Source: Candidatus Hermodarchaeota archaeon (GTDB lineage Archaea; Asgardarchaeota; Lokiarchaeia; Sigyniarchaeales; SOKP01). From it: a stretch of 44,156 nt of DNA. Made by a program: the position numbers and the translations under genes. Every line of letters begins with the position of its first letter. Position 1 is the first letter of the stretch. The notes under the pieces were generated by a model. It was not told the origin of the DNA. It was given only the letters and a program-made list of their open reading frames with translations, and made no database searches. The stretch covers positions 57,233-101,388 of the forward strand of contig JBHLLP010000009.1 of assembly GCA_048885525.1 (NCBI GenBank), read 5' to 3'. Positions 30,559 to 36,052 of this stretch are shown here, one piece after another.

Positions 30559-30664
30559 TTAATTTTTTTTAAACTAAAGGTAAAATTCAATTTTTTAATA
30601 TCTAATTATATTTTCTCTTAATTTTGCCATAAATCTAAACATTTAAATATAAGAAGAGATAAAC

Positions 30665-30698
30665 ATAAGTTGAAACTTATATATAAGTTCAAACTTAC
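30665..30698. promoter_or_regulatory. Tandem palindromic operator ATAAGTT-N2-AACTTA(T/C) x2, 18-bp period
   Basis: ATAAGTTGAAACTTAT (30665-30680) and ATAAGTTCAAACTTAC (30683-30698), 20 bp upstream of the ECF S gene, with TTATATAT at their junction. Confidence 0.75.
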
Positions 30699-30718
30699 AT
30701 AAATAAAGTGAAATATAT

Positions 30719-31342
30719 ATGAATCAAGAAAATAACCTTGTAAAGAAAAAACAGTATTCAAAAGTAGGAGCCTTTTATGGATATCTTCTACCAGATAATT
30801 CTATAATTATAGCAATAATTGCTGTATTTACAGCTTTGACGTGTTTATTAACTTTTATTGTACCTTTGACAATTCCAGCTACAGGAGGTTATATTAATCT
30901 TGGAGATATTGGAGTTATGATTTCTGGTATTTTATTTGGACCAATAATAGGTGGTATTGCAGGAGGGCTTGGTTCTGCACTTACAGATATTTTTTTAGCA
31001 CCTCTATATGTATTTCCTACCTTAATAATAAAAGGATTAGAAGGATTTATTGTGGGATTAATTGCTAATCCAAAGAAAAACTATTCAAAATTTAATTATA
31101 GAGATATAATTGCAGTTATATCAGGAGGTTTAATAATGGTTTTTGGATACTTTATAACAGAGATAATCCTTTATGGTTTTCCAGCGGCATTATTCGAGTT
31201 TTTCTTTAATAGTGCTATTCAATTCGGTTTTGGAGTTGTAGCTGCGATTTTGTTTGCCATTTTTGCTCGAAGAAATATTGTGGCTAATTTACCTCAAGTT
31301 TTTGATAAAGTCTTTTTTGAAACGGAAACAAGAAACAAATAA
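30719..31342 (+). CDS. ECF transporter S component (HmpT/PdxU2-like)
   Basis: IPATGGYINLGD, LFGP..G.IAGGLGSALTD, TLIIKGLEG, MVFGYF. Confidence 0.85.
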   Translation: MNQENNLVKKKQYSKVGAFYGYLLPDNSIIIAIIAVFTALTCLLTFIVPLTIPATGGYINLGDIGVMISGILFGPIIGGIAGGLGSALTDIFLAPLYVFPTLIIKGLEGFIVGLIANPKKNYSKFNYRDIIAVISGGLIMVFGYFITEIILYGFPAALFEFFFNSAIQFGFGVVAAILFAIFARRNIVANLPQVFDKVFFETETRNK

Positions 31343-31353
31343 TAGGTAACAAC

Positions 31354-32790
31354 TCAAAGTAGTGTAATTAATACATCTAAAGCGTCTAAAACTCTTTTAC
31401 CACTATCAGTTATAAAGTATAAAACACTCTTTCCCTCTTTTTTTCTATATATTAACCCTCTTGTTTCCAATTCTTTTAAATGCTGATAAATTGCTGCTAA
31501 ACTAATAGTCCCAATAATTTCTTGAATTTTAGTTCCACTTATTCCTTTAATACTGGATAATGAAATTTGAGATAAAACTTTCAGTTTTGTAATTATTATT
31601 GATCCTTTTCCAGTTGTTTTAGTTTGAGACGATATTGCTTCTAAAACATAAGGTGCTTTTAATCCACTTCCAGTAATTATGCAAACAATCTTATCATCAA
31701 CTCCAAAAAGACTTTTTTGATTTAATAATTGAATTGCAGCCACAGTTAAAGCAGAAGCGGGTTCAGCAAAAATTCCTTCATATCTAATTAGTTTATCAAT
31801 TGAATTCAAAATATTATCTTCTGGTATTCTTATAACTGTACCTTTACTTTCTCTTATACATCTAATAGCTAAATTTTTATATATTGGGTTCTTTACTAAA
31901 ATTCCCAGAGCAAGTGATTTTTGGATTTCTTGGTCCTTTTCTGCGACATCTTGATTTTTAAAAAAATCATCTACAATAGGAGATAAGATTTGAGATTGTA
32001 CTCCTACTAATTTTGGAAGATGCTTTATAACGTTAGCCTCTCGAAGCTCCTGAAATCCTTTCCATAAACTTACTAATAACTCTCCACTTCCCATTGGGAT
32101 TAAAATCCAATTTGGGTCTTTTACTTGTTTGATTATCTCATAAGCAATAGTCTTTTGGGCTTCAAGAGTAAGTGGATTTAAATCAGGAGTACCTTGATAG
32201 AAATCTTTAATGTTTTCTCGTTTTAAAACATCTTCAATAGCTTCATCTACAGTTTCTCCAATTAGTTCTAATTCAGAGTTATATGCGATCATTTGAGCTT
32301 TTTTACCGACATCAATTATTTTTGGAATGATATTCAAACAATCCATACCCTCAACAGATGTATAGGCTGCTAATGAGGCACCTTGATTCCCATTCGATGC
32401 ACATATTATTTTTTTAAAATCCCAACTTCTCGCATGGGAAGTTAATAACGCAGCAGCACGATCTTTGAAAGAATTTGTAGGGTTAAGAGTCTCATCTTTG
32501 AAAAATAAGTATTTTAATCCTAATTTTTCTCCAAATTTTTTTGAACTTCTACATGGGCTCCCTCCCTCTCCTAAAGAAATAATAAAGTCATGCTGTATTT
32601 GAGGAAAAGCAAAATTATAATCCCAAAATTTACCATCTTCTTTAACTTTAGAGAAATCCTCTTTCAGGTTACCTAAATCAAGTTTAAACCACAATAATCC
32701 TTCACAATCGGGACATTTATGTTTAATAGAAGTAAATTCAAACTGTTTTGTACAATCAATACAAGTTAGGATAAGTGGTCTTTTAATAAT
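31354..32790 (-). CDS. Threonine-synthase-like PLP protein with N-terminal zinc ribbon and C-terminal winged HTH; probable ATT start
   Basis: LGEG, NPTNSFKDR (PLP Lys), EPASA, ITGSGLK; C-terminal ISLAAIYQHLKELETRGLI..LYFITDSG. The upstream frame adds CIDC..CPDC and starts at ATT, 6 nt after GAGGT. Confidence 0.85.
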   Translation of the reverse strand: MIKRPLILTCIDCTKQFEFTSIKHKCPDCEGLLWFKLDLGNLKEDFSKVKEDGKFWDYNFAFPQIQHDFIISLGEGGSPCRSSKKFGEKLGLKYLFFKDETLNPTNSFKDRAAALLTSHARSWDFKKIICASNGNQGASLAAYTSVEGMDCLNIIPKIIDVGKKAQMIAYNSELELIGETVDEAIEDVLKRENIKDFYQGTPDLNPLTLEAQKTIAYEIIKQVKDPNWILIPMGSGELLVSLWKGFQELREANVIKHLPKLVGVQSQILSPIVDDFFKNQDVAEKDQEIQKSLALGILVKNPIYKNLAIRCIRESKGTVIRIPEDNILNSIDKLIRYEGIFAEPASALTVAAIQLLNQKSLFGVDDKIVCIITGSGLKAPYVLEAISSQTKTTGKGSIIITKLKVLSQISLSSIKGISGTKIQEIIGTISLAAIYQHLKELETRGLIYRKKEGKSVLYFITDSGKRVLDALDVLITLL

Positions 32791-32936
32791 GAAATAACCT
32801 CTAAAATAGAAAATACTTTAAAATTAATCATTAATTGATTTTTCTAATTATTAAGTTCTCTTAAAAAGATTTAATCTTTTTGGAGAGAATTGATTGATCA
32901 TAAATCTTAAATATTTTTCTATAATTTTATTTATAT

Positions 32937-32958: not shown

Positions 32959-32983
32959 TTTAAGAAAAGAAAAAAGGTGAAAA

Positions 32984-33748
32984 ATTACTATTTTATTATG
33001 GATAATATTATTCGCAACTTTAGGAAGTGTTGGTGCCATATTTACTGCTTCAGGATTCATTCTTTTTAAAGAAAATATACAAAAAGTTATTGTTTCTGCT
33101 TTAATTTCATTTGCAACAGGGACATTGCTAACTGCTTCGTTTTTAGGGTTAATTCCTGAAGCTATCGAGAGTTCAGCGGGTGAACCTCATTTCATCATGT
33201 ATATTGTATTAGGAGGTATTTTATTTTTCTTTTTCTTGGAAAAATTTTTAATTTGGCGGAATTGTCAAAATAACAGTTGCGAAGTTCACAGTCATGCTTC
33301 AGCATCAATAATTCTTGTGGGAGATGCATTTCATAATTTTACAGATGGAATTCTTATTGCAACTGCTTTTATTACAGATTTTAATATTGGTATTGCAGTC
33401 GGTATTACAATAATAATTCATGAGATACCTCAGGAAACAGGGGATTTTGGTATACTTATTCATGGTGGAATGCTGAAAAAAAAGGCATTTATATTAAATT
33501 TAATATCCAGCATATCTACAATACCTGCTGCTATTATAAGTTATTATATTATTGGCATTTTTGACTTTCTTATTCCAATATTTTTAGCAATCTCATCAGC
33601 TAGTTTTATTTATATAGCATTATCGGATTTAACACCAAGATTACATGAAAAGACAGGGACAAGAGAAATCATAAAACAATTGATTTTAGTAATGTTTGGC
33701 ATTATTATTATGGGTCTTATATTAATACTTGGAGGACATGAACATTAA
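32984..33748 (+). CDS. ZIP-family (ZupT-like) metal transporter; N-terminus extends upstream of the TTG at 33125
   Basis: GDAFHNFTDG, HEIPQETGDF. The upstream frame encodes TM1-2 (ITILLWIILFATLGSVGAIF...LISFATGTLL). Confidence 0.88.
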   Translation: MTILLWIILFATLGSVGAIFTASGFILFKENIQKVIVSALISFATGTLLTASFLGLIPEAIESSAGEPHFIMYIVLGGILFFFFLEKFLIWRNCQNNSCEVHSHASASIILVGDAFHNFTDGILIATAFITDFNIGIAVGITIIIHEIPQETGDFGILIHGGMLKKKAFILNLISSISTIPAAIISYYIIGIFDFLIPIFLAISSASFIYIALSDLTPRLHEKTGTREIIKQLILVMFGIIIMGLILILGGHEH

Positions 33749-33778
33749 CCAATAAATAAAAACTGAGAGGCTTATAAA

Positions 33779-34195
33779 ATGCTAGATTTAGATTGTCTTG
33801 TTATAAAATTTTTATTTAAATCACAAAACTCTTTGAAAATAGGTGCACTAAAAAAAAGTTTAAAAATACCACATTCAACTCTAGGTAGTTGTATTAAAAG
33901 ACTTGAACAACGTAATTTTGTTAATTATGAACCATATCATGAAGTAAATTTGACAAAAAATGGTATTGAATTGGCAAAGGAATTGAATCGACATAGCAGA
34001 CTTCTCGAAGTTCTATTACATAAGGGGTTAGGACTCGATCCGAGTAAAGCTCATGATGAAAGTGAAAAATTTAGCCTACTTTTTTCATGTGAAACAATAA
34101 ATAAAATCTGTGAAAAATATAATCATCCAGAAGAATGCCCATGTGGTGAAAAAATTTTAAACAGTTCAGCGTGTTTCTGTGAAAAAGAGATTTAG
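33779..34195 (+). CDS. DtxR/MntR-family metal-dependent regulator
   Basis: IKRLEQRNFVNYEPYHEVNLTKNG..A..L.RHSRLLE.LL, AHDESE, HPEECPCG. Confidence 0.9.
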   Translation: MLDLDCLVIKFLFKSQNSLKIGALKKSLKIPHSTLGSCIKRLEQRNFVNYEPYHEVNLTKNGIELAKELNRHSRLLEVLLHKGLGLDPSKAHDESEKFSLLFSCETINKICEKYNHPEECPCGEKILNSSACFCEKEI

Positions 34196-34200
34196 AACAG

Positions 34201-34686
34201 TTACTTAATAATTTCATTAGAAGCATAAGCAGTTAGAATCTTACCATAAAAGAAATGATGACTACTTAAATCTGATTTACTAGTATGAATTATTTGACAC
34301 TCATAACTTAAAATACTATCTTTTATTGTGGGTACTTTTGTTCTTTTTCCCGGAAAGGTTTCCAAACCTGCTTTTTTGAATTTATCAGTATTCCTACCTG
34401 AATAAAAACCGGCAATATTTATTGACTCCCAATTATTTTCTGAGGGAATATTTACAGTAAATTCATTCACTCCTTCAGTTAATAGTTGATAAGTATATCG
34501 ACTATAATCAACTTGTGCTCTAATAACAGGCTGACCATCGAATTCTTCAATCTTCTTCCAATCTAAAGCCATCACATTCGGCTTTCCATTTTTGTCCATC
34601 GATACCATTAGTGCTGTATTTCTCTTAAAATACTCAATATATTCATATGGTTCAATTTCTTTTCTATTAAAGACCATTTTTTTCAA
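34201..34686 (-). CDS. Flavin reductase-like (DIM6/NTAB) protein
   Basis: GKPNVM, RYT, EFTVNIP, SGRNTDKF, VPTI, YEC, HHFFYGKI. Confidence 0.88.
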   Translation of the reverse strand: MKKMVFNRKEIEPYEYIEYFKRNTALMVSMDKNGKPNVMALDWKKIEEFDGQPVIRAQVDYSRYTYQLLTEGVNEFTVNIPSENNWESINIAGFYSGRNTDKFKKAGLETFPGKRTKVPTIKDSILSYECQIIHTSKSDLSSHHFFYGKILTAYASNEIIK

Positions 34687-34716
34687 TTAAATACGTTTAT
34701 TTTTCTTATATAAAAT

Positions 34717-34938
34717 TTAATCATAGTCATCATCATTATTATCATCTTCATCCTCATCATCTTCATCCTCATCGTTATAATCTTCCTCATCGTTATATAC
34801 GTCTATAGTCTCATACTCTTCAGCATCACGATAACATTTTTTACAATAAGGTCTTCCACCTACATAAATCGCTTTATCTTGGAGTATTTCTTTCTCACAA
34901 TTTTCACAATAAACATAGTCTTCATTATTTGAATTCAT
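34717..34938 (-). CDS. Small zinc-finger (half-LIM-like) protein with acidic tail
   Basis: CENC-x17-YCKKCY followed by a D/E-rich tail. Confidence 0.7.
   Translation of the reverse strand: MNSNNEDYVYCENCEKEILQDKAIYVGGRPYCKKCYRDAEEYETIDVYNDEEDYNDEDEDDEDEDDNNDDDYD
34741..34797. repeat. Short tandem duplications in the acidic tail (ATCATCTTCATCCTC x2; TCCTCATCGTTATA x2)
   Basis: Direct repeats at 34741-55/34756-70 and 34766-79/34784-97. Confidence 0.8.
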
Positions 34939-35014
34939 TTTTTTTAAGGAATATTTTATTAAGCAATATAAAAGAATAAGAAAAAAAAGATTTAAGGGTT
35001 TTTTGATTCAAAAT

Positions 35015-36052
35015 TTAAATTAGATATGAATTAGCTTCTTTTAGCTTTTGTTCTGCACCTTTAACTATATCATCAATGATATCCTGGACACTTTCTATCG
35101 AATTAATCATGCCTATACTTTGACCTAGAAGAACTGCGCCATCAGCGATATTTCCATCATAAGTCATTTCATAAAATTTCTGATCTTCTAAAGCCATTGC
35201 GGGAGTTATCTGTGCTTCTAATGCCAATTTTTCTTCCTTGCTTGAAATAACCCCATGATGTAAAGAATAATTATTTTTCCATAGTCTTATTGGGCCTAAT
35301 ACGCCCGTTACATATATAGTATCACTTGCATTCGCAGGTGGTATAATGTTTTTATATTTCTCGTGAAATTCACTTTCTTTTGAAGCAATAAATCTTGAAC
35401 CCATTGCAATTGCTCCCGCTCCTATTGCTAATGCTGAAGCTAAACCCTCTCCACTTGCAAATCCTCCACATGCTACAATAGGTAAATCAGGATATTTTCG
35501 TATAACTTGTTGAAGAAGCACTAGTGTGCTAATTTTTTCATAGGATTGATGTCCTCCACCTTCATATCCAGTTAATACAACACCATCAGCTCCAGCGTCA
35601 ATACACTTTTCAGCAAGCCATAATGCGGGAGAAACATGAAAATGTTTAATATTAGAACCACTTTCTCTTAATCTTTGAAATGATTTCGCTTTTTGTAAGA
35701 TCTTGGCTGACCCTGCACTTGTTACTGCGTACATGCATTGTTCTTTTAATTTTGGATTCTCCATAATAAATCTTGAAATCCCTCGACAGAGTCCTGGAGC
35801 ATCTAACTGTAATCTTGACGTTCTTACATTTAAACCAAATGGCTTATCAGTATGTTCAATCACAAACTCCATATCATTCTTCATTTCTTCTAAACTACTC
35901 TTCCCGAACAGATTGGTATGACTTAAAACTCCCAATCCACCTGCTTCGGAAACCGCAACAGTTAATTCCTTAGTGTAAAATGGTCCCATTGGTGCTGCTA
36001 TAATTGGATGCTTAATTCCAAGCATTTCAGTTATTTTTGTTTTTAAACCCAT
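35015..36052 (-). CDS. Nitronate monooxygenase / FabK-like flavoprotein
   Basis: LGIKHPIIAAPM, AVSEAGGLG, TDKPFGLN, GYEGGGH, ACGG, GAGAIAMGSRF, GQSIGMI. Confidence 0.9.
   Translation of the reverse strand: MGLKTKITEMLGIKHPIIAAPMGPFYTKELTVAVSEAGGLGVLSHTNLFGKSSLEEMKNDMEFVIEHTDKPFGLNVRTSRLQLDAPGLCRGISRFIMENPKLKEQCMYAVTSAGSAKILQKAKSFQRLRESGSNIKHFHVSPALWLAEKCIDAGADGVVLTGYEGGGHQSYEKISTLVLLQQVIRKYPDLPIVACGGFASGEGLASALAIGAGAIAMGSRFIASKESEFHEKYKNIIPPANASDTIYVTGVLGPIRLWKNNYSLHHGVISSKEEKLALEAQITPAMALEDQKFYEMTYDGNIADGAVLLGQSIGMINSIESVQDIIDDIVKGAEQKLKEANSYLI

Follow-up and report, generated by a model that had tools for sequence, protein, structure and literature searches.

The 44,156-nt stretch of DNA analyzed here (the window; contig C9:57233-101388) comes from a metagenome-assembled genome (MAG) of the Asgard archaeon Candidatus Hermodarchaeota archaeon (3.58 Mb, ~29% G+C, 99.3% complete). 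It contains a convergent gene pair in which a minus-strand gene, encoding a threonine synthase (ThrC)-like protein that ends in a winged helix-turn-helix (wHTH), faces a plus-strand gene for the S component of an energy-coupling factor (ECF) transporter. The gene at 31354-32790 is very probably a transcription factor and no working threonine synthase, and we consider it likely that its product is a vitamin B6-responsive repressor of the predicted importer gene, acting via two palindromes upstream of the latter. The features concerned are as follows.

30642..30649, plus strand: TATA-box candidate TTTAAATA, 17 nt upstream of operator site 1 and at the same position in three close relatives (loci L009, L105, and L154)
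30666..30679: putative operator site 1, TAAGTTGAAACTTA (sequence, genome scan, relatives)
30677..30684, plus strand: TATA-like TTATATAT between the sites, an alternative TATA box that may instead be the flanks of extended palindromes
30684..30697: putative operator site 2, TAAGTTCAAACTTA, its centre 18 bp from that of site 1
30719..31342, plus strand: PdxU/HmpT-type ECF S component (PF07155), predicted target gene and importer of B6 vitamers (PF07155 and 4HZU_S matches)
31354..32790, minus strand: gene for the ThrC-fold/PadR-wHTH regulator, ~478 aa (translation, PALP match, ThrC fold)
31360..31605, minus strand: C-terminal PadR-like wHTH, residues ~398-479 (profile matches, alignment, AlphaFold model)
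31669..32580, minus strand: predicted sensor domain of the fold-type II, ThrC-like class of pyridoxal 5'-phosphate (PLP) proteins, residues 73-376 (profile match, alignments)
32704..32763, minus strand: N-terminal zinc ribbon, Cys12/Cys15/Cys28/Cys31

Architecture of the probable regulator

A first-pass annotation, made from the nucleotide sequence alone, had described a ThrC-like protein with its PLP-binding elements kept and an ArsR/PadR-like wHTH at its C-terminus, and both parts of this description were borne out. The translation contains SFKDR (Lys111, codon 32464-32466), PMGSGEL, EPASA, and ITGSG, and the PALP domain (residues 73-376) scores 209 bits against Pfam. The C-terminal tail of ~85 residues matched PadR at 21.9 bits (PF03551 cut-off 27) and HxlR at 20.3 bits, both below the Pfam cut-offs, while the PadR scores of orthologues (35.6-43.9 bits) lay above. 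In the AlphaFold model (mean pLDDT 83.5), a disordered or flexible linker (residues 378-400) precedes three helices (398-413, 421-428, and 433-445), a β-hairpin wing (strands 449-454 and 457-462), and a C-terminal helix (464-479), which is the topology of a wHTH and was modeled with a pLDDT of ~74-87. Alignment of 15 family members showed that the four cysteines of the zinc ribbon are invariant and that G236/G238 of the Gly-rich loop, N137, T375, and G378 are invariant or nearly so. The same was true of Y437, Q438, H439, and L440 in the wHTH, and the helix that bears this Tyr-Gln-His-Leu sequence is the probable recognition helix.

The zinc ribbon (CxxC...CxxC) is encoded upstream of the first ATG, GTG, or TTG of the frame, the first canonical start being the TTG at 32694. 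Because this invariant element precedes every canonical start, translation probably begins at an ATT codon, at 32790 or 32787, behind a GAGGT Shine-Dalgarno sequence. Orthologues at loci L009, L013, L015, and L016 read Ile-Ile at the corresponding position (window 32785-32796) and that at L012 reads Ile-Met, an observation that suggests ATT initiation.

Relationship to threonine synthase

The closest solved structures of the regulator are threonine synthases (6CGQ, 2ZSJ, and 1UIM; E 2e-44, 29-32% identity, TM 0.84-0.87). Its likeness to ThrC extends over the whole PLP domain and includes the PLP lysine, which is kept here, and the N-terminal zinc ribbon, which is common in archaeal ThrC. It differs from ThrC in its additional wHTH and in the residues that contact the substrate phosphate, which we take from T. 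thermophilus structures to be the Thr of ASTGNT, the Asn-Ser and Arg of NSxNPxR, and the Asn of GNAGN. Alignment with the enzymes of B. subtilis and A. aeolicus confirmed the altered phosphate motifs reported by the first reading of the sequence (ASTGNT to ASNGNQ, NSVNPYR to PDLNPLT, and GNAGN to GSGEL), with SFKDR retained. The protein also scored below both curated cut-offs, with 155-156 bits for TIGR00260 (cut-off 167.1) and 320 bits for PRK05638 (cut-off 421).

We also looked for the pathway that would supply a threonine synthase with its substrate. Homoserine dehydrogenase (PF00742) had no match in the 99.3%-complete genome, ThrB was not found in it (the sole matches being weak ones of the GHMP-kinase type, ≤31 bits), and the alternative homoserine kinase TIGR02535 had no match in it either; therefore, O-phosphohomoserine would not be made in this genome. 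A separate canonical thrC, which the first-pass annotation had proposed to look for, was likewise not found in the genome, and the regulator is its only ThrC homologue. Many of 151 Asgard genomes, on the other hand, carry a wHTH-bearing copy together with a separate short ThrC. In a 66-sequence alignment, the short copies keep GSFKDRG, CASTGNTS, NSxNPxRLEGQKT, and GNAGN, whereas every wHTH-bearing copy is without the phosphate-site residues of ThrC.

It is very improbable that the gene encodes a true threonine synthase to which an accessory domain has been added at the C-terminus, the palindromes then serving another regulator. Several sources do name the protein threonine synthase (others name it a PLP-dependent enzyme), PRK05638, 'threonine synthase', is its best NCBIfam match and covers its full length, the wHTH included, and it is the sole ThrC homologue in the genome. 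These points are countered by the sub-cut-off scores, the missing substrate pathway, and the family-wide loss of the phosphate site, on which our conclusion that the protein is not a working threonine synthase is based. The separate canonical ThrC of so many genomes, the absence of the catalytic lysine from most orthologues, and the presence or absence of the operator together with the regulator gene (both described below) argue in the same direction. With family members labelled threonine synthase, metabolic reconstructions of uncultured archaea may wrongly infer threonine prototrophy.

The Schiff-base lysine across the family

At ~129 loci, the position of Lys111 was occupied by K in 34, R in 62, I in 16, L in 12, S in 2, M in 2, and N in 1. 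Thus, the lysine is replaced in about three quarters of the sampled wHTH-bearing relatives, and those of the loci that retain it belong only to the window's own family of genomes or to a few Bathyarchaeia. The arginine codons are mostly AGA or AGG, one transition from AAA or AAG. In a quick tree, the Lys group and the Arg lineages emerge together from one unresolved node, which is compatible with either direction of change between Lys and Arg. Judged from these sequences, the catalytic lysine is dispensable across the family, and its position is free to vary against a constant cofactor pocket and constant DNA-reading residues, as in a clean example of a pseudoenzyme. The earlier idea of an enzyme-derived, fold-type II sensor is thereby supported, as the relatives lack the phosphate site and most of them the lysine, and no O-phosphohomoserine pathway was found here.

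Since Lys111 and many other ThrC-conserved residues are kept in this particular regulator, some residual or new catalysis is conceivable. The protein might be a trigger enzyme that catalyzes another PLP reaction, perhaps on the imported compound or a derivative of it, and also binds the operator, coupling turnover to transcription. The intact Gly-rich PLP loop and the high identity within the window's own family (52-82%) would fit such an enzyme, and the bifunctional archaeal enzyme-regulator RbkR provides a precedent (PMC5397151). We nevertheless regard it as unlikely. Lysine and arginine codons being one transition apart, the lysine looks interchangeable rather than essential, its bearers share an unresolved node with the Arg lineages, and further Lys proteins occur among the Arg-type Bathyarchaeia loci. 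Moreover, the substrate-phosphate site is gone, and in the neighborhoods surveyed there is no conserved metabolic partner gene besides the transporter or pdxST.

The S component

The convergent neighbor is an ECF S component with a GYINLGD motif, as first annotated; its translation contains the motif and scores 100.2 bits for PF07155 (cut-off 26.7). The only relative of solved structure is PdxU2/HmpT of Lactobacillus brevis (4HZU chain S; E 3.8e-18), which belongs to the same Pfam family and aligns over ~140 residues. PF07155 includes the B6 transporters PdxU and PdxU2/HmpT (PMC9997740), and the substrate of HmpT is pyridoxamine (PMC4860826). Two EcfT/CbiQ genes (PF02361; 96 and 99 bits) lie elsewhere in the genome, as expected for a shared energizing module. 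The identity of the S protein to HmpT is low, and the positions reported to contact pyridoxamine in HmpT (PMC4860826) are only partly kept in it, Glu41 being replaced by Asp and His84 by Lys. On the strength of its family and of the genomic evidence given below, the S component probably imports B6 vitamers.

Putative operator sites and promoter

The first-pass annotation had placed two palindromes on either side of a TATA-like sequence in the promoter of the S gene. Both palindromes and the TTATATAT between them are present, but a better archaeal TATA box, TTTAAATA, lies upstream of the two sites. In the 3.58-Mb genome, three exact copies of the 14-mer TAAGTTNNAACTTA are found (2.3 expected); sites 1 and 2 account for two of them, and the third lies inside an open reading frame (ORF). 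With one mismatch or fewer, there are 44 sites (~72 expected), none of them in the whole genome ahead of a B6-related gene. A larger regulon was considered and rejected; the best intergenic near-matches precede genes for heliorhodopsin, an HD-domain protein, and two proteins without a Pfam family, and were taken as chance. In the case of the heliorhodopsin gene (PF18761, 285 bits; contig C27:17705-18564), the near-consensus TAGGTTTTAACTTA is located 20 nt upstream of the start. Because no further convincing sites were found in the genome, the local regulon appears to be limited to the S gene.

At nearly all of the Asgard loci, one or two (T)AAGTT-N2-AACTT(A) sites stand by a TATA-like sequence upstream of the S gene, in flanking sequence that is not conserved. 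Where the two genes are divergent, a single 12-nt core is found between two TATATA boxes, as an operator shared by both genes. As the Bathyarchaeia site reads TAGTATAGTTnnAACTATACTA, the core common to all is AGTT-N2-AACT. This core occurs exactly, within 120 nt upstream of the start of the target (S or pdxS), at 39 of 63 loci, as opposed to 0.25 on average, and never more than 3, in 500 shuffles. Autoregulation was rejected for the convergent and co-directional loci, where the 120 nt ahead of the regulator gene contained the core at none of 77 loci.

In the window's own family, seven genomes possess an S orthologue (45-61% identity) and have neither the regulator nor the palindrome. One of the seven, G065 (locus L049 3839-3979), has a 47-aa remnant of the regulator, 42.6% identical to residues 25-71, behind an intact S gene whose promoter is without the palindrome; this may be a decayed module. 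In five euryarchaeal MAGs the regulator is not linked to an S gene, and in four of them the best PF07155 gene, located elsewhere, carries a site between a TATA-like sequence and the ATG. These sites read AAGTT-N2-AACTT (e.g., tttttaAAGTTGTAACTTgaaa and atttcAAGTTAAAACTTgag), with a one-base variant, AAGTAGTAACTT, in the fourth MAG, and the fifth MAG has only a weaker CAAG-N6-CTTG palindrome. No site was found at the other PF07155 paralogues of the five MAGs. The operator is thus missing where the regulator has been lost and marks unlinked S genes, and these two comparisons tie the site to the regulator rather than to another factor.

Conservation of the gene pair

Conservation of the gene pair and palindrome, which had been suggested as a check, was found across the Asgard families and beyond them. 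The S gene adjoins the regulator gene in a convergent arrangement in the window's own family, co-directionally in Odin-type and other Asgard families, and divergently in Thor-, Hermod-, and other lineages. A scan of genome collections confirmed at least 587 related stretches outside the Asgard archaea, in which the wHTH was not checked one by one. Their hosts, among the matches listed, are Bathyarchaeia, Thermoproteota, Nitrososphaerota, Thermococcus-type archaea, Methanobacteriota, and other MAGs. In the best 80 of these loci, the S gene is next door in 64. Together with the disappearance of the palindrome where the regulator has been lost, this persistence of pair and palindrome across archaeal phyla supports the control of the transporter by the regulator that had been proposed from the window alone. 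As some of the relatives come from Thermococcus-type genomes, it may be possible to work with a host that can be cultivated.

Two individual genomes are worth recording. The Thor-type genome G134 has two separate divergent regulator/S pairs (loci L058 and L059), each with a TATATA-core-TATATA arrangement. In a Thermococcus sp. MAG (L172 1030-5444), the regulator gene lies between the genes for FttA/aCPSF1 and ribose-5-phosphate isomerase, and PdxS was not found in that genome.

Link to vitamin B6

The regulator had been proposed to sense PLP or an amino acid. In several genomes, it is found beside the genes for PLP synthesis: the order is regulator-pdxS-pdxT in genome G007, with AGGTAACAACCT upstream of the regulator gene; the regulator gene is divergent from pdxS in G041 and within ~1.2 kb of pdxS-pdxT in G097; and in a Heimdallarchaeote it is divergent from pdxS-pdxT, and CAAGTTACAACTTG and CAAGTTATAACATG stand in tandem between the two. 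In genome G048, an S-like gene, pdxS, and pdxT stand head to tail.

PdxS was found in 24 of the 151 Asgard genomes (9 of the 73 high-quality ones). The S gene was not found in 15 of the 24 genomes with PdxS versus 14 of the 127 without it, and several lineages contribute to this anticorrelation. Most Asgard genomes therefore appear, from their gene content, to depend on external vitamin B6, and the replacement of PdxS by the importer in most of them points to a widespread B6 dependence on partner organisms. In the genome studied here, a homologue search did not find PdxS, and ThiC is present; therefore, it needs B6 from outside and not hydroxymethylpyrimidine (HMP). The strongest Phos_pyr_kin match, 9 kb away from thiC, is possibly ThiD. 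A second match, considered as a PdxK candidate, was rejected as a PfkB-family sugar kinase.

A different ligand, such as threonine or another amino acid, HMP, or riboflavin/FMN, could be sensed by the regulator and imported by the S component. PF07155 also holds riboflavin S components, HmpT was first predicted to transport HMP (PMC4860826), and the pyridoxamine contacts are only partly kept; furthermore, genes for a flavin reductase and an FMN-dependent NMO recur near the pair in the window's family. Against this stand the placement of the regulator beside pdxS-pdxT in four genomes and of an S-like gene in a pdxST cluster, the anticorrelation of S and PdxS, and the combination of ThiC, by which uptake of HMP would not be needed, with a lack of PdxS. 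The flavin genes, for their part, are not conserved beyond the closest relatives. We consider another ligand improbable, slightly more so than a trigger enzyme. Of the two ligands first proposed, vitamin B6 is favored by the linkage to pdxST, the anticorrelation, and the lack of PdxS here, and an amino acid is less likely.

Proposed mechanism

We propose that the ligand is sensed by the ThrC-derived, fold-type II PLP domain, which the flexible linker joins to the C-terminal PadR-like winged helix, and that a dimer of the regulator would sit on each (T)AAGTT-N2-AACTT(A) palindrome. When B6 is sufficient, the ligand-bound regulator would occupy the tandem sites and block transcription initiation of the importer gene; when B6 is low, it would leave the DNA and uptake would rise. 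The ligand is most likely PLP; the lysine-retaining subfamily may bind it as a Schiff base on Lys111, and the Arg, Ile, and Leu forms would bind it without one. Counterparts of the protein in other genomes would repress pdxST. The tandem sites follow the TATA region and precede the start codon, a position typical of archaeal repressors that act by blocking the recruitment of polymerase. DNA binding by the regulator, the identity of its ligand, repression with B6 as co-repressor, and dimer formation are all inferred here from sequence and from the arrangement of the sites.

On a wider scale, and with a little less assurance than for the local B6-responsive repressor, we think it probable that this protein represents a widespread archaeal family of B6-responsive transcription factors derived from a threonine synthase pseudoenzyme. 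Its members would share one recognition helix and the AGTT-N2-AACT core from Asgard to Thermococcus-type archaea, with lysine-bearing forms sensing the ligand covalently and lysine-less forms non-covalently.

Several observations weigh against the proposed B6-responsive repressor. The wHTH of the regulator itself falls short of the Pfam cut-offs, and the S protein has exchanged two of the pyridoxamine contacts of HmpT. In Asgard family f8, which has the regulator, an unlinked pdxS, and no S gene, the pdxS promoters show only weak or variant palindromes. The retention of Lys111 and of many ThrC-conserved residues means that the regulator may still catalyze some reaction, and repression rather than activation is suggested by the position of the sites only. 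Finally, related genomes are not independent samples, and the counts given above overstate the statistical weight.

Comparison with known regulators

PdxR/MocR regulators of Bacteria consist of a GntR-type wHTH and a fold-type I, aminotransferase-like PLP domain (PMC5320631). The archaeal regulator resembles them in the fusion of a PLP-enzyme-derived effector domain to a winged helix, in a cofactor-sensing manner, and in having B6 synthesis or salvage genes as predicted targets, with palindromic or repeated operators. It does not have the N-terminal GntR wHTH and fold-type I domain that define MocR proteins; instead, a PALP domain is followed by a C-terminal PadR-like wHTH. The two sensor folds are unrelated, that of the archaeal protein being fold-type II and ThrC-like; its domains come in the opposite order, and it carries a zinc ribbon at the N-terminus in addition. 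Also unlike PdxR/MocR, it occurred, in the collections searched, in archaeal genomes and MAGs only, and the Schiff-base lysine is dispensable in most members of its family.

Archaea use enzyme-derived vitamin regulators of other kinds. ThiR is an archaeal vitamin regulator composed of a ThiN domain and an HTH. RbkR, which is also archaeal, combines a riboflavin kinase with a wHTH and retains enzyme activity (PMC5397151). In both of these, as predicted for the present regulator, a biosynthetic enzyme has lent one of its domains to vitamin sensing, in fusion with a DNA-binding domain, and the targets are both synthesis genes and genes for uptake, of the ECF type or otherwise. The present regulator differs from them in vitamin, sensor fold, and DNA motif, and whereas RbkR keeps its activity, most members of the ThrC-wHTH family cannot form a PLP Schiff base. 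By its sequence, then, the regulator is one that would work like PdxR/MocR, RbkR, and ThiR but belongs to none of them.

A description of this family was not found in the searchable full-text literature (subscription journals being outside its coverage), nor was one of any B6 regulator for Archaea, the counterparts in Bacteria being PdxR/MocR. If the proposal is true, this would be, within the literature searched, the first regulator with a fold-type II PLP domain and the first archaeal regulator of B6. The protein, its operator, and its target gene make B6 homeostasis in Archaea directly testable.

Neighboring genes

Genes for a flavin-reductase-like protein and an NMO/FMN-dependent dehydrogenase (34201-36052) recur beside the pair at loci L008, L009, and L010 and are absent there in distant lineages. 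Between them and the regulator gene lie the gene for a ZIP metal transporter and, behind it, that for a DtxR-type (Fe_dep_repr_C) regulator (33125-34195); these form a separate metal-homeostasis pair that is kept in the closest relatives only. The frame of the ZIP transporter (32974-33748, plus strand) is open from a stop codon at 32978-32980, and its first transmembrane helix is encoded before the first canonical start, the TTG at 33125. An ATT at 32984, behind GGTGA, may be a second non-canonical start in this region, that of the ZIP transporter gene.

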